Notes: generated by a model from the sequence alone, not told the origin. A stretch of DNA of 64,000 bases from Minisyncoccota bacterium (GCA_041664265.1 JBAYLD010000001.1:134358-198357); one strand, 5' to 3'. Counted from the stretch's first letter, positions 9,497 through 50,031 are shown. A program made the numbers and translations.

Positions 9497-10264
9497 TGTG
9501 GACACCGGGTGTCTACAAAAGATTTGCGAGTTAGTATGAGGAAATGGGGTACCGAGAAAACATGACGAACTCTTGTGTGCATGCATACAACCGTGGAGTA
9601 AAGAAAATGCCTATCTTCCGAGAAAAGAACGACCTGTTGCGCCTTTTTAATAGCCTGTACTACTTCAATACCACACAAACGATGCCAGAGAACTGGATCC
9701 GCGATGTTATTAGAGAAGGTGGAATGCAAAAATTAGTGTGGCCATCTATATGGGAACCACGCGAACCGCTAGTTTCAATTCTAGCATGCACTATAATGCC
9801 AAACCATTTCCATTTACTACTTAAAGAGAAAATCGCGGGCGGTATAAGTAAATTTATGCACCGCGTCAGTATGGGATATTCAAAATTCATCAACGAGAAA
9901 TATACCGAGAGTGGTAGTCTCTTCCAAGGCGCTTACAAGGCAAGGTGTATCGATGACGATGCAGATTTAAAAAATCTTGTTGCATATATCATGATAAAGA
10001 ATTCCTTCGAAACATACCCGGGAGGATTGGAGAAAGCGTACAAAGAATTTGACCAGGCTTACGACTACGCGCTTGACTACCCGTTAACCAGTCTTGCCGA
10101 ATACACAGGGAAAAGAAAGCCGGCACTATTAGATCACAATCTCCTACGAGAGTTATTTGAAGAACCAAAATCATTCAAGGAATTCGCTCGCGATTGTATG
10201 CAAAATCGCTTCGAGCAAATGAATGATTATAGTTTCGAGAAAGTGTAGACACCGGGTGTCTACA
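9497..10264 (+). mobile_element. IS200/IS605-family (RAYT-like) element 1, bounded by palindromic hairpins
   Basis: Left hairpin tgtggacaccgggtgtctaca (9497-9517) and right perfect palindrome tgtagacaccgggtgtctaca (10244-10264) flank a Y1 HuH transposase gene. Confidence 0.6.
9544..10248 (+). CDS. Y1 HuH transposase, IS200-like / REP-associated tyrosine transposase-like
   Basis: 234 aa. HuH motif MPNHFHLLL. Downstream Tyr region SGSLFQGAYKARCIDDDADLKNLVAYIMIKN resembles the RAYT WQRRYxxHxIRDE region. Confidence 0.65.
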   Translation: MGYRENMTNSCVHAYNRGVKKMPIFREKNDLLRLFNSLYYFNTTQTMPENWIRDVIREGGMQKLVWPSIWEPREPLVSILACTIMPNHFHLLLKEKIAGGISKFMHRVSMGYSKFINEKYTESGSLFQGAYKARCIDDDADLKNLVAYIMIKNSFETYPGGLEKAYKEFDQAYDYALDYPLTSLAEYTGKRKPALLDHNLLRELFEEPKSFKEFARDCMQNRFEQMNDYSFEKV

Positions 10265-10465
10265 CCTCACAAATATCCTTATCTTATACCGACCGGATGT
10301 GGATAAGAATATTGAGGGAAATAAAAAAGCCGCGAGAGACGGGAGTAATTGCCTTATCGCTTTCCTCCACTAACAACGTCCTCGCGGCTACTTCAGTGTC
10401 CACCAGGAGACTTACTCCCGGCAAAGAGCCGGGTCCGGCCGAACCCGAACTCTATTTACAAAATA

Positions 10466-15410: not shown

Positions 15411-15447
15411 AAAAAAAACGCCCCCGTGAAAACGGGGGCGTTTTTTT
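15411..15447. terminator. Bidirectional rho-independent terminator (rpsA / pth convergent)
   Basis: aaaaaaaa cgcccccg tgaaaa cgggggcg ttttttt. Confidence 0.7.
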
Positions 15448-16738: not shown

Positions 16739-17914
16739 ATGCAGGGTCATAGCGAGCCTTATCGAACTATGATGCGCGAGGTCATTCCCGGAGAAGAACT
16801 CTTGAACAAATCGCACGCCATCGGCCAGTACTATGGTTTTGTCCCGCTCGCAACGCTCACCGGGCGAACACGCAGCATTGCGCGAGTGAAAACAAGCAAC
16901 CCCAGTGCCCCCGTCGACCTCGGAGAGGATCCTATCGCCAACACGGTAGCGAGCTTTTTAAAACAATGTCAGAACATAAACTGTGTACCTTCTCCGCGAC
17001 AACCGACCTTCATCTGGCACACGAACATCGCTCCAGGCCGCCCTGTGCATAAGAAAATGACGGTGCAGTTCCATGCGCTCGGCACAGATCGTGCAATCGC
17101 CGATGCGGTCGTTATCCGTGCACTCCTCGCACTCTCGCGCGACCTCTTCCGTACCGAGACTACCGTCCGTATTAATTCGATGGGCGACAAAGAGACCCGG
17201 GCGCGCTACGCGCGTGAACTTGGCGTCTTCTTTAAAAAACGTGCAAACACGCTCCCTGAAGAATGCCTCGAATGCGCCCGGCGCGATGTGCTTGAAGCAG
17301 CCGAGCTTGCGCTCGCGCGCGGCTGGGTGGATGACGTCCCTTCTCCGACCGACCATCTCTCGGACGCGAGCCGTAAGCGCTTCGAGGATTTGCTTGAATA
17401 TCTCGAGATGACCGAGACGCCCTATGAGCTCGCACGCACCCTGATCAGCCGCGGCAGCGCTTGGAGCGACATATGCTTCGAGATTATGGCGGGTGATCGG
17501 CGCGTCGCGTGGGGTTCGCGCTACACCGACCTCACGCGCCACTTCTTCCCCACTGCGCCCTTTAGCGCGACTGGTGCCGTACTCCAAGTAGCTGGCGAGG
17601 GCGCGATCGTCGAAAAAATACCATCGGTACGAGTGCGGTTCTCGTTCGTCCATATTGGTGATGAGGCGAAGAGGATATCTATTCGCCTGGCCGAGGACTT
17701 CAAGAAAGCGCGCATCCCCCTTACCCAAGACATCGGCGTCGAATCGTTGGCCGAGCAACTCCATCTCGCCGAACGGCGCGAGAGCCCCTACCTCCTCATC
17801 ATGGGCCGCAAAGAGGCACTCGAGGGCTCGGCGATCCTCCGCAACCGCCAAACGCAAGAAGAGACTATCCTCCCCCTCGCCGGCCTCATCGACCGCCTGA
17901 AGGCGTTTGCTTAA
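16739..17914 (+). CDS. Histidyl-tRNA synthetase-like class II aaRS paralog with degenerate catalytic motifs
   Basis: 391 aa. QFHALGTD (compare HisRS QFHQIGxE), WGSRYTDL (compare GGRYD), and a C-terminal HGTP anticodon-binding-like domain (PYLLIMGRKEALEGSAILRNRQTQEE). Motif 1 and motif 2 residues are poorly conserved. Confidence 0.45.
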   Translation: MQGHSEPYRTMMREVIPGEELLNKSHAIGQYYGFVPLATLTGRTRSIARVKTSNPSAPVDLGEDPIANTVASFLKQCQNINCVPSPRQPTFIWHTNIAPGRPVHKKMTVQFHALGTDRAIADAVVIRALLALSRDLFRTETTVRINSMGDKETRARYARELGVFFKKRANTLPEECLECARRDVLEAAELALARGWVDDVPSPTDHLSDASRKRFEDLLEYLEMTETPYELARTLISRGSAWSDICFEIMAGDRRVAWGSRYTDLTRHFFPTAPFSATGAVLQVAGEGAIVEKIPSVRVRFSFVHIGDEAKRISIRLAEDFKKARIPLTQDIGVESLAEQLHLAERRESPYLLIMGRKEALEGSAILRNRQTQEETILPLAGLIDRLKAFA

Positions 17915-18040
17915 CAGAACTGCGAGTCTGACTCGCAGTTCTCGTGACTTGGACATCCGATGTCCAATTTGGTACCCTACTCTCCGGACGCTATTTGCTA
18001 CAGAACTGCAGTTAAACCTAAAAGAAAGAGGAGGTGCATC

Positions 18041-30395: not shown

Positions 30396-31255
30396 GTGAA
30401 AAGGAGATTGTAGTGCTCTACCATGGCGGCTGCCCCGACGGCTTCAGCGGCGCCTATGCCGCGTGGAAGAAATTCGGCGATACAGCAGAATATATCCCAT
30501 TAAAACTACATGCCCGGCCGGTCCCTGAAGGACTCGCGGGCAGGCGGTTATTTTTCATTGATTTCACCTATCCGCAGGACATCATGGACGAGATCGTGAG
30601 GACCGCCGCATCGGTCACCGTTCTCGACCATCATCGAGGCATACAAGAAGTGGTTGAACGCATGCCCGAACATGTCTTTGACGAGAAGCGGTCCGGTGCG
30701 ACCATCGCGTGGAGCTACTTCCATCCGGACACTCCTGTTCCCGTTCTGCTGAGATACGTCGAGGATGGCGATCGGTACGTCTTCCAGCTCCCGGATTCTC
30801 GCGCAGTGCTCGCCTATGCCTATACACAAAAATTTACGTTTGAAGCATGGGACCAGTTGGTACAAGAGTTTGAAGATGAAAAGACGCGTGCGACATTGCT
30901 GGAGAAAGGAAAAGTGTATGCAGAGCATTTTGCCATTCTGGTCGGGCAGATCGCCAACAAAGCAAAGCTTGTGTCGTTTGAAGGCTTCACGTGCCCCCTC
31001 GTCTCTGCTGCGGACATGTTCACTTCTGATGTGGGGAATCGGCTCGCACAAGAGCGCCCGCCGCTCGGCATCGTGGTCAACTTCCGCGAGGATGTCCTCC
31101 ATGTGTCGCTCCGGAGCACTCCCGACCTGGATGTCTCGATCATCGCGCAGAAGTATGGCGGCAATGGCCACCCGCAAGCCGCCGCATTCAATGTCGCCTG
31201 GGGTTGCCCGCTCCCTTGGACCGTTTTAGAGGAACATGAGAATCCTTGCCGTTGA
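30392..31255 (+). CDS. DHH-family phosphoesterase (NrnA-like)
   Basis: Start at MSEKEIVVLYHGGCPDGF, ATGA overlap with rlmB. DHH motif VLDHHRG. Confidence 0.55.
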   Translation: MSEKEIVVLYHGGCPDGFSGAYAAWKKFGDTAEYIPLKLHARPVPEGLAGRRLFFIDFTYPQDIMDEIVRTAASVTVLDHHRGIQEVVERMPEHVFDEKRSGATIAWSYFHPDTPVPVLLRYVEDGDRYVFQLPDSRAVLAYAYTQKFTFEAWDQLVQEFEDEKTRATLLEKGKVYAEHFAILVGQIANKAKLVSFEGFTCPLVSAADMFTSDVGNRLAQERPPLGIVVNFREDVLHVSLRSTPDLDVSIIAQKYGGNGHPQAAAFNVAWGCPLPWTVLEEHENPCR

Positions 31256-32534
31256 AACCTCTTGTGACGAGACTGCCATCGCGATTCTTGAATGCAGTGG
31301 CGACCCCTCGGCAGGACTCGGGACAAGTGAAAACGCGACCTGTACCGTGCTCGGGAACGCGCTCCTCTCGCAGATAGACCTGCACAAGCAGTATGGCGGC
31401 GTCTTCCCCGCGCTCGCCAAACGTGAGCATGCGAAGAATCTCGTGCCGATCCTCGAAGCGGCACTTGAGGAGGCGGAGTGTGTTCGGAAAGGAAAACAGA
31501 TGATATCTGATGGGCTGTTGGCCGAAGTTGAGGCTATGTTGGCGCGTGAGCCCGGCCTTACCGAAGCCTTTTTCGCTTTTGTCTCTGAATGCGAACCGCC
31601 AGCGATCGACGCGATTGCGGTTACCGCGGGTCCCGGACTTGAGCCCGCGCTCTGGGTCGGCATCAACTTCGCGAAGGCGCTCGCTCTCGTATGGCAGAAG
31701 CCGCTCGTCGCAGTGAATCATATGGAGGGACATATTCTCGCTGCCATCGCGCAAAGAACACAAGGAGACACCTCGCCTTCGCGAGGAGTCACCTTGCGCA
31801 AATCCGAAACAGAAAAATTAGAAATTAAAAATGTACAATTTCCAATACTCGCACTGCTGATATCCGGCGGACATACCCAACTTGTGCTGATGAAAAAATG
31901 GCTTGAGTATGAGCTCGTCGGCGAGACGCGCGACGATGCCGTCGGCGAGGCCTTCGATAAGGTCGCGCGCATGCTCGCGCTCCCCTATCCGGGCGGGCCA
32001 GAGATCTCGCGCCTCGCTGAAGAAGTCAGACAGGAATGTCAGGACATCGGAAGTCCCACATCAGATGTGGGACTTCCGATGTCCCACACATGGGCGAAAC
32101 TGCCGCGGCCGATGATTAACGAAAATAGCTGCGACTTCTCATTTGCAGGATTGAAAACCGCGGTGTTGAACCTTTTGAAAAAGGTCCCCGATATCCGCGA
32201 CGAAGACAAGAAGCATATCGCCCACGAGTTCGAAAACGCCGTCACTGACGTATTGTGGAAGAAGACTGCGCGTGCGCTCAAAGAGACGGGAGCCAAGACG
32301 CTCGTCATCGGCGGCGGCGTCTCGGCGAATACTCATATCAAACGCACCTTCCGAGAAAACATCGCTCAAGAATTCGGGAATATCGATCTTCGCATACCGA
32401 AGGCGAGCCTCTCGACCGACAACGCCATCATGATCGGGCTCGCCGGCTACTATCGCGCCTTACGCGAAGAAGTTGTCCAACCTTCCGACGAACTCAAAGC
32501 AAACGGTAATCTCTCTCTCGCAAAAAAGCCCTGA
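31236..32534 (+). CDS. tsaD: tRNA N6-adenosine threonylcarbamoyltransferase TsaD (Kae1/Gcp), carrying in-frame insertions
   Basis: 432 aa. MRILAVETSCDETAIAIL, HMEGHILAA, VIGGGVSANTHIKR. It is about 90 aa longer than typical TsaD. The insertions coincide with palindromic repeats at 31763-31794 and 32042-32084. Confidence 0.85.
   Translation: MRILAVETSCDETAIAILECSGDPSAGLGTSENATCTVLGNALLSQIDLHKQYGGVFPALAKREHAKNLVPILEAALEEAECVRKGKQMISDGLLAEVEAMLAREPGLTEAFFAFVSECEPPAIDAIAVTAGPGLEPALWVGINFAKALALVWQKPLVAVNHMEGHILAAIAQRTQGDTSPSRGVTLRKSETEKLEIKNVQFPILALLISGGHTQLVLMKKWLEYELVGETRDDAVGEAFDKVARMLALPYPGGPEISRLAEEVRQECQDIGSPTSDVGLPMSHTWAKLPRPMINENSCDFSFAGLKTAVLNLLKKVPDIRDEDKKHIAHEFENAVTDVLWKKTARALKETGAKTLVIGGGVSANTHIKRTFRENIAQEFGNIDLRIPKASLSTDNAIMIGLAGYYRALREEVVQPSDELKANGNLSLAKKP
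32042..32084. repeat. 43-nt perfect palindrome inside the tsaD coding sequence
   Basis: ggacatcggaagtcccacatc a gatgtgggacttccgatgtcc. Both strands encode DIGSPTSDVGLPMS. Confidence 0.8.
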
Positions 32535-43182: not shown

Positions 43183-44861
43183 GGTTGTATCAGTTCTTCG
43201 GCAGAAGGAGTAAGTATCTCGGAACGTCCACTGCGGAGATGGAGGAGCTTGCTCAGGGCGTCCAGCATCATGCGAAATTCTACATTCCCGATAAGGTAAA
43301 GCGCGAGTGCTGCGGCGGCAAGGCCGACTGTCCCGGCAAAAAATCCCTGTGCAAAGACGGAGACCAGGGTCGTGAGGGGCGCGATGCCGCCCTCAAACGC
43401 GAGCGTGACGTACGCGGCGGCTCCGCCCACAAGTGCGGCAACGCATCCGTCAAAGAACGGTCGCGCGAGCATACGTGCGAGACCCTGAGAAACGCCCCGA
43501 AGCGACAACAAAGAGAGTATGGCGAGAAATACTTGGCCGAGCGTCGCTGCGAGCGCCAGGAGCAGTATTGTCGACCCTTGCACGTCACTCACGCGCAAGA
43601 GAGCCGCGAGCGAGGCAGGCAACCTCTCGATCGGCATCGAGAGGAACGTTACCGCAAGAGACACAGTGAGAAGCGCAGCTGCAAATTGATATAGAAACGG
43701 CCGCCATGACTGGCGTACCGCATAGAGCGCGCGCGAGAAGAGGAGCACGAGCCCTTGCGCGACGAGCCCGACGGCAAGGATCGCCAAAAGAGCGGCGGTG
43801 AGGCGTGTCGCATCCCAATCGAAGGCGCCCGTGCCGAGAATCACGCGCACGATATGCGCCCGCAAAATCGCAATAAGCCCGAGAGACACGATCGACCAGA
43901 GGATAATGTGCCGAGCGCTCGCCGAGAGGATGTGGGTGAATTCAGCACGCCGCTCCAAAGCTGATGCCTCGGAGAGTGCCGGGAACGCCGCGATAGCATA
44001 CGAGGAGCCAATGAGCGCGAGCGGTACTGCCTCGAGATTGCTAGCGAAGGTGAAGACAGAGACCGAACCCGTGCCGATCCTCGAGGCGAAAGCGGTTAGT
44101 ATGAGCGCCGTAATCGAGCCCATGCCGAGTGCGAGAGAGCGCGGCACAGAATCCCGTATGACCGGCATCATGAGGGCATAGCTGGGGAGGCGGAAGGAGG
44201 GGATGACCTTGGCATCTGTAATGACCGGAATATTGACGGCTAAGTAAGCAACTGCGCCGATGACAACGCCGATGCCGATACCCGGCAAGCCCCACTGCGG
44301 ATAGAACACGACCGCGCCCAGGATAATGCCGAGGTTATAGAGGACCGGCGAAAATGCGAAGAGCATAAAGCGCCGATGCACCTGTGTCACGCTCCCTAGG
44401 ACACCTGAAAGCCCCAGGAGGATGGGCTGCACGAGTAGAATGCGCGCCAGCAACACGAATTCAGCATGCTGCGGAGAAGCAACGAAGTTCGGATACAGAA
44501 ATGCGAGGAATTGCGGCATGAAGAATGCGAGCACAATACAGAGCAGGCTGCCCAAGCCGAAGAGGAACGTCGCCGATTCAGAGAGGAGCCGGCGCGTCGC
44601 TTCCCTATCCATCCCCGTTATGCGCGGGATGATGACGTATGCGCTCACGAGCGAGGAGACGAGCGCAAAAACGAGATCCGGCACGCGAAACGCCGCGTAG
44701 TAGAGATCGAGCACCTCTCCCGCGCCAAATGAGTGTGCAAACGCTCGGTCGCGAAGAAGCGCGAGAACCTGTGACGCAAGCGTCAGGCCGGCGAGCAAAT
44801 ACGCGGCCTGATGCAGGCCGCGTATTGGTGCCGCGATGCGTTTAAGAATCTGCCGAACCAT
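43179..44861 (-). CDS. murJ: Lipid II flippase MurJ (MviN family)
   Basis: 560 aa, 14-TM pattern. N-terminal LLRDRAFAHSFGAGEVLDLYYAAFRVPD is typical of MurJ. Confidence 0.8.
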   Translation of the reverse strand: MVRQILKRIAAPIRGLHQAAYLLAGLTLASQVLALLRDRAFAHSFGAGEVLDLYYAAFRVPDLVFALVSSLVSAYVIIPRITGMDREATRRLLSESATFLFGLGSLLCIVLAFFMPQFLAFLYPNFVASPQHAEFVLLARILLVQPILLGLSGVLGSVTQVHRRFMLFAFSPVLYNLGIILGAVVFYPQWGLPGIGIGVVIGAVAYLAVNIPVITDAKVIPSFRLPSYALMMPVIRDSVPRSLALGMGSITALILTAFASRIGTGSVSVFTFASNLEAVPLALIGSSYAIAAFPALSEASALERRAEFTHILSASARHIILWSIVSLGLIAILRAHIVRVILGTGAFDWDATRLTAALLAILAVGLVAQGLVLLFSRALYAVRQSWRPFLYQFAAALLTVSLAVTFLSMPIERLPASLAALLRVSDVQGSTILLLALAATLGQVFLAILSLLSLRGVSQGLARMLARPFFDGCVAALVGGAAAYVTLAFEGGIAPLTTLVSVFAQGFFAGTVGLAAAALALYLIGNVEFRMMLDALSKLLHLRSGRSEILTPSAEELIQP

Positions 44862-47333: not shown

Positions 47334-47420
47334 AAAAATAAGTGCTGGTGATGCTATTCAGTGATAATACTGTCTAGTATACCGCCTCACCCAGTCGCTC
47401 AAGCCTCTATCCCCACATTT

Positions 47421-48231
47421 CCGTAAGGTGTCCGTAAGGTGTCACCTTACGGAATCAATAAAACGCTAGAAACCGTAAGGTGTCACCTTACGGAACATGC
47501 TACTATTACCGAATATGACAAAGAGAGACGTCCCGTTTGCTGTCGGGGAGTGGTACCACTGTTATAATCGTGGCATTGAGAAGCGTATCGTATTTGAAGA
47601 TATTCGAGATTATCACCGCTTCCTTGAGCTCCTTTATTTGGCGAATGATGAGTTTCCTCTCCGGCGTGACGATATCGGCCTATATAAATTTGAAGAGATA
47701 TTAAAGGTTCCTCGCGGCAAGAAATTAGTCGCTATTGGAGCATTCTGCTTGATGCCAAACCACTTCCACTTAGTTTTGAAAGAGGTTGTGGATGGAGGCA
47801 TTACCGCATTTATGCGGAAAATCGGGACGGCATATGCTCTGTATTTTAATGCACGGCACGGACGGACGGGAAACCTGTTCCTCAAGCCGTTTCGATCCCG
47901 CCATGTATCTACCGATCGCTACTTTCAGCACCTTATCAATTATGTGCACTGTAACCCAGCGGCGCTCTCTGAACCCGAGTGGAAAACCAGCCATGTTGTG
48001 GACCCTCAGTTCTTGGGAGAACAAATCGCCGCATACCCGTATTCAAGTCTTGGTACCCATGCGGGCGCACACACGCCGACCAGCGCTATCCTAGACGCGG
48101 AGGTGTTCTCTCTAGCGCGTACGGTTCAAATACAAAAGATGCTACAGGAAGCGCGACAGTATTATGCTGATTCCGACCTTTCCCTTCCGTAAGGTGTCAC
48201 CTTACATCTGCTGTAAGGTGACACCTTACGG
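47421..48231 (+). mobile_element. IS200/IS605-family (RAYT-like) element 2, with hairpin doublets at both ends
   Basis: Perfect palindrome ccgtaaggtgtcaccttacgg at 47432-47452 and 47473-47493 (left). Related hairpins at 48187-48205 and 48213-48231 (right). These differ from the element 1 hairpins. Confidence 0.65.
47497..48192 (+). CDS. Y1 HuH transposase, IS200-like / RAYT-like (paralog of 9544..10248)
   Basis: 231 aa. YHCYNRG, HuH MPNHFHLVL, Tyr region GNLFLKPFRSRHVSTDRYFQHLINYVHCNP. Confidence 0.65.
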   Translation: MLLLPNMTKRDVPFAVGEWYHCYNRGIEKRIVFEDIRDYHRFLELLYLANDEFPLRRDDIGLYKFEEILKVPRGKKLVAIGAFCLMPNHFHLVLKEVVDGGITAFMRKIGTAYALYFNARHGRTGNLFLKPFRSRHVSTDRYFQHLINYVHCNPAALSEPEWKTSHVVDPQFLGEQIAAYPYSSLGTHAGAHTPTSAILDAEVFSLARTVQIQKMLQEARQYYADSDLSLP

Positions 48232-48248
48232 AATGTGGTATAATAAGC

Positions 48249-48592
48249 GCGGACCGGGCTAAGCGATCGCTGGCGGCGTAACGCGCCGACTAGAGGAAAG
48301 TCCGAACATGCGCTCGCTGCAAGGTGAGCAAGAAAGGTAGCGGGTAACGCCCGTCGTCCGTGAGGATAGAGGTGACCACAGTGACGCCAAAACCGAGAGG
48401 TGAAGGGTTCCCTTCGGGGAATAATCTCGCCGCAAGACGAGGGTGCAACGAACAAATCCTTACCCGCATGCAAGGCCGTGTCCCGAGTCCGCCAACTGGT
48501 GGACGAGGGAAGTGCCGCTTGATCCTGAGAGCAATCGAAGGGCTAGATAAATGATCGCTCACGACAGAATTCGGCTTATCGGCCCGGTCCAC
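48249..48592 (+). ncRNA. rnpB: RNase P RNA, bacterial type A
   Basis: P1 pairing: 5' GGACCGGGC with 3' GCCCGGTCC. Conserved GAGGAAAGTCCGAACA (P4 5' strand), GGTAACGCCCG, and 3' region GGCTAGATAAATGATCGCTCACGACAGAATTCGGCTTATCGG, which closely matches E. coli M1 RNA GCCUAGAUGAAUGACUGUCCACGACAGAACCCGGCUUAUCGG. Confidence 0.85.
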
Positions 48593-48597
48593 ATACA

Positions 48598-48632
48598 TGC
48601 AAAAACCCGCGCTCCTGCGCGGGTTTTTGCTC
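48598..48632. terminator. Bidirectional terminator between rnpB and the DGR RT gene
   Basis: gcaaaaa cccgcgc tcct gcgcggg tttttgc. Confidence 0.65.
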
Positions 48633-48633
48633 C

Positions 48634-49623
48634 CTACTTACTGACCGGAATTAATTTTGAAAGTTTATGCGCATTACCATGCCTCAACATACCGCGATAC
48701 GATGAGACGTTTCCCTCGCTCGGGTTCCCACTCACCGCTTTCAGCATCCGCCGCTTCGTGCTCGTGCGCAAAACGCGATGATCGGAGAAATGCACCCAGC
48801 CGAGGAAATCAACGCCCGAGGCGAATGTTTTGATGAAAACCTTGTCCGGATGGAGATCAAGCTTTAGCCGATCACGCAAGAATGCTCCTATAGGCTGGAG
48901 GACGTTACACAGATATGATCGGTCACGCGAAAGAATAACAAAATCATCGGAATAGCGGATATAATGGCGTGCTTTTAATTTGTGCTTCACGAACTGATCA
49001 AACTCATTCATATAGATATTCACGAGAAGTTGGCTCGTAAGATTCCCAAGCGGCAAACCCTTACCAAGACCGGTTGAATGAAAACTCTCAATTATGTTTT
49101 GCAGCAAGGCTATAATTCGTTCATCAGGAATATGCCTCCGTAAGATTTCGAGCAATATTTGCTGATCAATGGATGCAAAAAACTTTCTGATGTCACACTT
49201 AAGCACCCATGCGGTCCTCGCGTGGTTTTTACTCTCCTGACATGCATATCGCCTGAAGGCATTCATTGCGCGATGAGTCCCCTTCTCTAGCCGACAAGAG
49301 TATGAGTCGGTGATAAACGTGCTGTTGAAAACCGGATACAAAATTCTGTAGATAGCATGGTGCACCAACCGGTCGCGTACGCTCGCTTTATGTATGTCGC
49401 GCGGTTTTGGATCGCTGATCTTGAAATGGGTATACGAGCCATGTCGGTATGCACCTGAGACAAGATCCGAATGGAGTGTAAAAATATTCCGTACGAGATC
49501 GTATTCGAACGCCTGCACGTCTTTCTTTTTCTGCTTGCCGTGTAAGAACTCTTTCCATGCGTCGAGCAGGTTGTTGGTAGAAATGATATTGTCGTAGGAA
49601 TGGGAGTCACCGATTCTACTCAT
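48634..49623 (-). CDS. Diversity-generating retroelement reverse transcriptase
   Basis: The ORF runs to 49749; the likely start is MSRIGDSH at 49623. RT motifs LKCDIRKFFASID and YIRYSDDFVIL. The DGR-diagnostic motif GLPLGNLTSQLLVNIYMNEFDQFVKH ([ILV]GxxxSQ) is close to Bordetella bRT. No maturase or endonuclease domain. Confidence 0.85.
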   Translation of the reverse strand: MSRIGDSHSYDNIISTNNLLDAWKEFLHGKQKKKDVQAFEYDLVRNIFTLHSDLVSGAYRHGSYTHFKISDPKPRDIHKASVRDRLVHHAIYRILYPVFNSTFITDSYSCRLEKGTHRAMNAFRRYACQESKNHARTAWVLKCDIRKFFASIDQQILLEILRRHIPDERIIALLQNIIESFHSTGLGKGLPLGNLTSQLLVNIYMNEFDQFVKHKLKARHYIRYSDDFVILSRDRSYLCNVLQPIGAFLRDRLKLDLHPDKVFIKTFASGVDFLGWVHFSDHRVLRTSTKRRMLKAVSGNPSEGNVSSYRGMLRHGNAHKLSKLIPVSK

Positions 49624-50031
49624 ACCCTTGAACGTACCCCCCCCCGGACGATTCCGCAAGAAAAACTCGTGGCGGTCGTGTTGAAACTGAAAGAGACATA
49701 CCTTGCGTGGCAGATGGCGCTCCCACATGTCGCAAAAGCTCGACGGCAAACAATAGCCGCGCGCATTGACGGGGCACTTCTCGACACACTTGAATACGCA
49801 TTTCGAGCCGAATATCTCTCGGGACTGCTGAAAATTAAAGCAATCGAGGTATCAATCGAGAGACTCGATGTAGCCAAATTCTTTTTGCTGGTCGGATGGG
49901 AAAGCGATGCCATTACGAACGATCAGCATCTCCGTATAACGGGGCTTCTCATTGAGGCGAGCAAAATGCTCGTTGGTTGGAAGGCATATCTTGAAAAGAA
50001 AACTCCCGCGGATGAGGGCGGGAGAAAGTAA
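49600..50031 (+). CDS. Avd-like (accessory variability determinant, 23S rRNA IVS four-helix-bundle family) protein
   Basis: 143 aa from the ATG; an alternative GTG start at 49669 gives 120 aa. Basic helical protein. LKETYLAWQMALPHVAKARR and C-terminal ITGLLIEASKMLVGWKAYL resemble Avd motifs. It is divergent from the RT gene and antisense to the TR-RT spacer. Confidence 0.5.
   Translation: MGVTDSTHTLERTPPRTIPQEKLVAVVLKLKETYLAWQMALPHVAKARRQTIAARIDGALLDTLEYAFRAEYLSGLLKIKAIEVSIERLDVAKFFLLVGWESDAITNDQHLRITGLLIEASKMLVGWKAYLEKKTPADEGGRK

Follow-up and report, generated by a model that had tools for sequence, protein, structure and literature searches.

Among the systems closest to the one described here, the REPtron, in which a RAYT (TnpAREP) protein is flanked by REP or REPIN elements, is said to have been described from E. 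coli and Pseudomonas in work associated with Nunvar in 2010, with Bertels and Rainey in 2011 and with Ton-Hoang in 2012. Y1 enzymes are known to act on imperfect hairpins that carry a guide tetranucleotide, and REP and REPIN elements are often located at the 3' ends of genes, also as inverted doublets. To our knowledge, the host function of the RAYT-type domesticated transposases is still unknown. RAYTs are single-copy, vertically inherited, housekeeping-like genes (PMC5581495). The other related system is the TIRYT or TIRtron (Di Nocera et al. 2013, PMC3733652), which corresponds roughly to subclass 2.1 of the TnpAY1 proteins (Quentin et al. 2018, PMC6006769). Its TIRs can overlap gene ends, can be self-complementary over their whole length and can make up small families of dimeric repeats (PMC3733652). 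The subclass 2.1 signature consists of NH[YF]H, L-F-Q, Y[IV]HLNP and an SS tail in about 238 aa (PMC6006769, Table 1); REP-like structures adjoining subclass 2.1 genes were not found by Quentin et al., and Patescibacteria are not named in the main text of that article (PMC6006769).

The window, that is the whole stretch of 64,000 nucleotides that was analysed, carries a Y1/HUH gene with palindromes on both sides, next to the RNase P RNA gene rnpB. The best reading of this system is a RAYT/TIRYT-like REPtron or TIRtron: with a probability of roughly 0.65, it is a domesticated RAYT/TIRYT-like Y1/HUH gene with cognate, private palindromes, vertically inherited, with low-copy seeding and probable autoregulation. 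The features of the locus, of its neighbour and of a paralogous unit are the following.

47421-47431, plus strand: left arm and centre base of the palindrome as a tandem duplicate, CCGTAAGGTGT, directly 5' of L1 and abutting it
47432-47452 (extends to 47431-47453), no strand: L1, perfect 21-nt palindrome CCGTAAGGTGtCACCTTACGG, found by motif matching
47473-47493, no strand: L2, another perfect copy of the palindrome, its centre 41 nt from that of L1
47498-47506, plus strand: extended -10-like box TGcTACTAT, 8 nt before the ATG, read from the sequence
47515-48192, plus strand: gene of the Y1/HUH (RAYT/TIRYT-like) protein, 225 aa, stop TAA inside the right palindrome
48185-48233, no strand: R doublet, two inverted units, REPIN-like, together one perfect palindrome (arms 22 nt, loop 5 nt)
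48236-48244, plus strand: extended -10 of rnpB, TGgTATAAT, a neighbour outside the element
48251-48594, plus strand: RNase P RNA gene rnpB (Rfam RF00010, 114.5 bits), conserved synteny partner
9498-9516, no strand: left palindrome of the paralogue, GTGGACACCGGGTGTCTAC (GTGGACACCgGGTGTCTAC)
9544-10248, plus strand: paralogous Y1/HUH gene, 29% identity over a 188-residue tblastn match, stop TAG inside the right palindrome
10245-10263, no strand: right palindrome of the paralogue, GTAGACACCGGGTGTCTAC (GTAGACACCgGGTGTCTAC)
Palindrome strings for counting across the source assembly, besides the half-sites: CCGTAAGGTGWCACCTTACGG and GTRGACACCSGGTGTCTAC

The sequence-only reading had placed two perfect 21-nt palindromes and a partial half-site to the left of the transposase gene, and two related hairpins to its right. 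The left-hand coordinates hold (47432-47452 and 47473-47493 for the palindrome, which can also be written as CCGTAAGGTGTCACCTTACGG, and 47421-47431 for the half-site), and the right-hand pair was confirmed, with 2 mismatches at 48187-48207 and 1 at 48211-48231, these two copies being better described together as one perfect palindrome of 49 nt, 48185-48233, at the stop codon of the Y1 gene (TAA, 48190-48192, inside the first unit). The two units are inverted, the first with T and the second with A at its centre, and compensating changes are seen in their inner arms, where ...TTACA / TGTAA... replaces ...TTACGG / CCGTAA...; folded as single-stranded DNA the doublet reaches -25.6 kcal/mol (z = -12). 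These four matches of the motif, with 0.00 expected in shuffles, are the only ones in the 64 kb, and the unit is compact, 810 bp. The GT[AG]G tag was not found at palindromes of the L1, L2 and R type, the foot of which is GTAA here and GCAA, GCGA, ACGA or GCTA in the orthologues.

An arm duplicate next to a full palindrome, as at 47421-47431, was also seen at L011 (right side), at L107:1327-1342, and at L114 and L116 (left side); this duplication affects both palindrome types in several genomes and may be a footprint either of hairpin cleavage and rejoining or of replication slippage. With a minimum arm of 9 nt and a maximum loop of 5 nt, the whole window has 26 perfect palindromes, compared with 0-5 in shuffles. 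Some of them are bidirectional terminators with A/T runs (2930-2957, 15412-15447 and 48599-48630), and several, 4755-4781 and 44798-44826 among them, have GGCCTGCA in common.

The ORF contains both motifs that had been attributed to the transposase, YHCYNRG and NHFHLVL, and Pfam, residues and fold agree in making it a Y1/HUH enzyme. Its true start is most likely the ATG at 47515 and not position 47497, since the homologues have 223 aa and begin with MTKRD. Numbered from this methionine, the HUH motif is H83-F-H85 and the tyrosine is Y143, at a HUH-to-Tyr distance of 58 residues, where 58-67 is typical (PMC6006769). The window protein passes the cutoff of Pfam PF01797 (Y1_Tnp) marginally (24.7 bits, cutoff 23), and the same model is matched by 52 of the 52 aligned family members, with a best E-value of 6e-12. 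This alignment covers diverse relatives, with members down to 24% identity; H15, H83, Y143 and S178 are invariant in it, and H85, N147 and P148 are nearly so. The HUH and Tyr residues align when the profile of the 52 members is matched to ISDra2 TnpA (E = 0.006) and to TnpAREP (E = 0.22), and a phmmer search of the PDB sequences with the single window protein gave no match. According to Foldseek, the structure closest to the AF2 (AlphaFold) model of the window protein (pLDDT 92.7) is 4er8, TnpAREP with a REP hairpin (E = 1.7e-6), followed by the TnpA proteins of IS608 and ISDra2. With this fold and these catalytic residues the window protein is a Y1/HUH enzyme.

Its position within the Y1 proteins was judged from profile scores and motifs. 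The RAYT equivalog model of NCBIfam, NF047646, scored 34.2 bits, below the cutoff of 80. A C-terminal HTH (Bac_DnaA_C, HTH_23, HTH_28) had no Pfam match at E <= 0.1 in the window protein and none at E <= 0.01 among the 52 members. The family consensus, of about 225 aa, reads CLMPNHFHLLL, GxLFQGxFKS, YIHLNP and YxYSS, and the corresponding motifs of the window protein are NHFH, LFLKP, YVHCNP and YSS. Judged by motifs and not by a tree, the subclass that the window protein resembles most appears to be 2.1 (Quentin et al. 2018).

Near-identical copies of the Y1 gene are absent from the 64-kb window, where its only relative is the paralogue. The proposal that the two elements of the window have diverged transposases and different hairpins stands: the tblastn comparison of the two proteins gave the low identity listed above, and each palindrome motif is confined to its own unit, that of the paralogue being found nowhere else in the window either. 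The paralogue's palindrome begins with GTGG or GTAG, matching the GT[AG]G tag, and its protein scores 36.5 bits with NF047646 (cutoff 80). The orthologues of the paralogue have their own palindrome variants with the apex GACAC-N3-5-GTGTC, and the order methyltransferase, Y1, gyrA is kept in three of four orthologous contexts.

At least 7,491 proteins of the protein collection make up the family to which the window protein belongs, and all members for which a source is named are from Patescibacteria. We examined 80 metagenome loci of this family (34-87% identity, 73 of them complete), and at nearly every gene a palindrome was found 10-20 nt before the start and another at or over the stop codon. 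The left and right palindromes match in 50 of the 73 complete loci, with sequences that differ between lineages, and 107 of 139 gene-proximal palindromes have an AGG-N5-CCT or AAG-N5-CTT apex above a variable lower stem. That the palindromes are cognate to the Y1 protein is supported by this co-variation of palindrome and protein lineage. The idea of co-evolving, REPtron-like pairs of transposase and REP is upheld by these lineage-specific, matching palindromes, but not in the sense of a canonical RAYT (34 bits against 80, no GT[AG]G tag). In 49 of 65 family loci the ATG is preceded, at a distance of 6-8 nt, by a TAnnnT box; the family genes therefore look leaderless, with the left palindrome over the -35/spacer region. 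One metagenome contig carries two family paralogues 6.7 kb apart (L028:10001-10654 and L028:16696-17349), each with its own matching palindrome pair (TTCTCAAGGAC... and AATCGGAAGA...), which shows that a single genome can hold several private pairs of protein and palindrome.

Closer relatives were compared in 31 loci with 64-87% protein identity. About 30 orthologues stand in the order membrane/TPR gene, L1, L2, Y1 gene, rnpB: the divergent membrane/TPR gene (789 aa, 57-74% identity) was present in all 27 loci with enough upstream sequence, and rnpB follows the Y1 gene in 29 of the 31. Because the gene order is kept in about 30 loci and the neighbour gene is comparably diverged, the window copy is, on this comparison, a fixed and vertically inherited gene and not a moving element. 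Of the earlier designation as an IS200-like element, the Y1 type and the palindromes at both ends remain, but this copy is a fixed, syntenic gene.

L1 and L2 are found at fixed offsets, the position of L1 being the same in 29 orthologous loci. L1 shows compensatory changes (15 cells altered on both sides, compared with 5.8 in shuffles, none of 500 shuffles being as high), and its outer pairs are often broken across the orthologues. The majority form of the orthologues is TTGACT-CCGTAAGGTGACACCT-TATAAT-N7-9-ATG, so that L2 is the spacer of TTGACT-N16/17-TATAAT in most of them; in the window and its nearest relatives the palindromes are full and TGcTAsTAT comes after them. The -10 hexamer of the window gene begins 7 nt after the end of L2, and the extended -10-like box 8 nt before the ATG suggests that the Y1 mRNA is apparently leaderless or nearly so. 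The consensus scan of the window for promoters and terminators flagged neither this promoter nor the palindromes; the TGcTACTAT box was missed since it has no -35, and the -10 boxes were called from sequence and conservation across the orthologues. The promoter geometry fits self-regulation. The right-hand side is more variable. Doublets were found in the window, in L001 (degenerate), and in L011, L098 and L102, in which three the units compensate; single copies were found in L004 and L005, and none in about 20 loci. Most orthologues are without right-hand palindromes and yet have L1 and L2, a pattern which a regulatory role fits at least as well as transposition.

About 29 orthologous loci have a conserved DnaA-box-like TTATCCACA immediately before L1 on its 5' side, a short way upstream of the -35 that serves the divergent membrane/TPR gene; in the window it is degenerate (TATCCCCACA, 47408-47417); an exact TTATCCACA stands at 10298-10306 on the minus strand, 35 nt past the right palindrome of the paralogue. 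A connection of this box with a DnaA-C-like domain, as in subclass 2.1, was considered and rejected, as no such domain was detected in the window protein or the 52 members and the box is restricted to the clade linked to rnpB.

As had been stated, the element adjoins rnpB, the gap between the R palindrome and rnpB being 17-19 nt. It had also been asked whether the element provides the rnpB promoter, and this can be answered in the negative. In 29 of the 30 orthologous loci for which the downstream flank was read, TGTGGTATAAT or a close variant (TATGGTATAAT, GGTGGTATAAT, GTGGTATGCT) stands directly before rnpB as its own extended -10, and the one exception, L015, has neither the -10 box nor rnpB. 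The box is present with or without R palindromes, hence the element does not supply the promoter. Just past the bidirectional terminator of rnpB (48599-48630) there is a reverse transcriptase gene (48634-49749, minus strand, Pfam RVT_1, 80.9 bits), the start of which is overlapped on the opposite strand by a 143-aa ORF with no Pfam match (49600-50031, plus strand). An RVT_1 gene lies downstream of rnpB also in L006, L094 and L098, and this region may be a retroelement, for example a diversity-generating one.

Dispersal of the palindrome was followed with the 18-mer CCGTAAGGTGWCACCTTA in 185,579 species-representative genomes (GTDB), a collection that does not include the source genome. Among the 33 loci found, six were single matches in unrelated taxa, which is within chance, and the rest were in Patescibacteria. 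Copies away from any Y1 gene occur in at least 8 Patescibacteria assemblies, with 1-8 extra sites per related genome, some of them doublets; in JBAZRE01, with an orthologue of 87% identity, three contigs carry eight extra sites, two inverted doublets among them. Several of the dispersed copies directly follow a gene, the TAA of the hairpin being its stop codon. Extra copies were found neither in the other 63 kb of the window nor in 307 kb of orthologue flanks, which puts the copy number far below that of classical REPs. Dispersal is thus low-copy and is seen in the relatives.

A perfect 27-nt palindrome of another kind, AGAACTGCGAGTCtGACTCGCAGTTCT (17916-17942), directly follows the stop of the ORF at 16739-17914 (HGTP_anticodon domain). 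The orthologous site of JBAZRE01 (L091:3524-3544) carries the CCGTAAGGTGTCACCTTACGG palindrome instead, and different palindromes at one orthologous site mean that copies are gained, lost or replaced. Neither this third palindrome nor that of the paralogue was found in any locus retrieved. Inside tsaD (31236-32534, plus strand; TIGR03723, 340.7 bits) there is a perfect 43-nt palindrome, GGACATCGGAAGTCCCACATCaGATGTGGGACTTCCGATGTCC (32042-32084), which is in frame and encodes QDIGSPTSDVGLPMS. In its 14-nt outer arms it agrees exactly with the inverted doublet after the stop of a Y1 family gene in L065, and it looks like an intragenic insertion, a REPIN-like element of another Y1 paralogue. Whole units have moved in another subfamily: the 80% nucleotide identity between L038 and L045 ends at the palindromes and the flanks are unrelated, so that the unit there must have moved in its entirety at some earlier time.

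From these observations we propose the following model. The Y1 protein would be a domesticated single-strand-DNA endonuclease/transposase which recognises its own palindrome, most likely as a DNA hairpin, in the way of TnpAREP and IS608 TnpA. The system may have originated as a compact IS200-like unit consisting of a palindrome, a -10 box, a leaderless gene and a palindrome over the stop codon, which became fixed between the membrane/TPR gene and rnpB and has since then been vertically inherited. The Y1 protein might still occasionally seed palindromes elsewhere, singly or as inverted doublets, often at gene 3' ends. As the upstream copies lie inside the core promoter of the gene, binding of the protein there probably also limits its own transcription.

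The main rival, rather unlikely, takes the palindromes for duplex operators and the Y1 protein mainly for a sequence-specific regulator, which would repress its own leaderless promoter via L1 and L2; copies abutting another promoter or a gene 3' end, like the R doublet by the rnpB -10, would influence that gene too, and the dispersed copies would be a small regulon and not transposition products. Much of the data is compatible with it. L2 is in the -35/spacer region in 29 of 29 orthologues, mostly exactly between TTGACT and TATAAT, the 41 bp between L1 and L2 correspond to about four helical turns, the two are kept where R has been lost, and a palindrome beside a -10 box is a family-wide feature. 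R2 also stands in the same register to the -10 of rnpB as L2 to the -10 of the Y1 gene, although this spacing is not conserved in L011, L098 and L102. The palindromes are perfect dyads, and their perfect and nearly strand-symmetric form counts against their being Y1 substrates. However, a pure DNA-binding role would not require conserved catalytic residues, whereas little or no variation is seen in the HUH histidines and the catalytic Tyr even among members as little as 24% identical. This conservation is left unexplained by operators alone, and so are the REPIN-like doublets, since the dispersed copies, inverted doublets included, often stand at gene 3' ends like REP and REPIN elements. Furthermore, the whole unit has changed its genomic context in other subfamilies. 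Operator function can in any case be accommodated within the domesticated-enzyme reading as an added function.

A more far-reaching interpretation, still more doubtful, concerns the family as a whole: several paralogues of domesticated Y1 enzymes per small genome, each tied to one private palindrome, of which its own leaderless promoter is made and which occurs also at a few other promoters or gene 3' ends, would constitute host-beneficial pairs, a cis-regulatory or genome-maintenance system and not selfish DNA. If it were true, it would explain why the gene is fixed by rnpB (and the paralogue by gyrA) across family-level divergence and is more conserved than its neighbour, and the expression of the RNase P RNA could even be coupled to the Y1 protein in the window genome.

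It is very improbable that the unit is an active, autonomous IS200-like insertion sequence standing next to rnpB by chance. Its compactness (810 bp), the palindromes at both ends, the Y1-type transposase and the related units in unrelated genomic contexts would suit such an element, but about 30 loci, in which the neighbours are as diverged as the gene, have the same gene order, and most orthologues lack the right end. In the window there is one copy, besides a paralogue only 29% identical, and most homologue clusters are found on a single contig each. Plasmid-borne relatives are remote (at most 32% identity), the single phage match is 36% identical across 35% of the protein, and the tyrosine motif is of class 2 (Y...NP), where IS200 has Y...Q (PMC6006769, Table 1). 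Hardly credible at all is the idea that the palindromes are ordinary terminators or mRNA-stabilising hairpins unconnected to the protein, for which the overlap of the right palindrome with the stop codon, the dispersed copies that often follow stop codons and the other terminator-like palindromes of the window might speak, but which is contradicted, as are the ubiquitous generic terminators that the sequence-only reading had named as its counter-case, by the lineage specificity of the palindromes (each protein lineage has its own on both sides), by the confinement of the motif to the locus and its absence from the rest of the window, by left copies lying upstream of the gene, and by the lack of a T-run after the palindromes, which the terminator scan did not flag.

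The domesticated Y1 family of Patescibacteria is a very compact and highly conserved version of the RAYT arrangement, in tiny genomes with few mobile elements. A private palindrome of 21 nt belongs to each gene, set in a simple leaderless promoter and with a handful of extra genomic copies, and with this compact layout binding, cleavage and autoregulation are easy to test by reporter fusions and oligonucleotides of small length. Since many metagenome-assembled genomes are available, the gain and loss of copies can be traced through them. It should also be kept in mind for annotation that "transposase" calls of this family in Patescibacteria should not be taken for active insertion sequences.

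Literature searches for RAYT in Patescibacteria or IS200 in the Candidate Phyla Radiation returned only unrelated papers, and a description of a Patescibacteria Y1 family with private palindromes was not found. The kind of system is already known, as RAYT with REP and as TIRYT with TIR, the latter with self-complementary repeats in dimers. The IS200/IS605 transposases (TnpA of IS608, ISDra2 and IS200) are the more distant comparison. The catalytic core and the fold are common to both, and so are the compact unit with hairpins at its two ends and, in some subfamilies, the change of context of the whole unit. Unlike them, the window protein has the tyrosine motif YVHCNP (Y...NP) and not Y...Q (PMC6006769, Table 1) and a length of 225 aa instead of about 150, the same perfect palindrome is present at both ends in place of distinct imperfect left-end and right-end hairpins, and the gene is syntenic across genomes and not multi-copy.

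The likeness to the REPtron is closer: a Y1/HUH protein with the class-2 Y...NP motif, whose top structural match is 4er8, is encoded by a single-copy, vertically inherited, housekeeping-like gene with cognate flanking palindromes, including an inverted doublet that compensates between its units like REPINs, and each paralogue in one genome has its own palindrome type. The differences are that the window protein reaches 34 bits where the NCBIfam RAYT model requires 80, that W94 and Q95 of TnpAREP are F and L in it (F-Q in the family consensus), that the window palindrome is perfect, short and without the GT[AG]G tag, that there are about 1-10 copies per genome and not hundreds, and that the left copies are part of the gene's own promoter.

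With TIRYT and subclass 2.1 the Patescibacteria family shares, by comparison of motifs only, the signature and a length of about 230 aa, and further a few diverged copies per genome; as in the TIRtron, the flanking repeats can overlap gene ends, can be entirely self-complementary and can make up small repeat families in dimer arrangement. It differs from subclass 2.1 in that no C-terminal HTH (Bac_DnaA_C, HTH_23, HTH_28) was detected in the family and in that nearly every family gene has REP-like palindromes, and the window system differs from the TIRtron in having no GGGGWSAS motif. Four features are new relative to all of these systems: the phylum, together with how large the family is; the regular occurrence of perfect palindromes with subclass-2.1-like proteins; a layout that is leaderless and embedded in the promoter; and the long-term linkage to rnpB.
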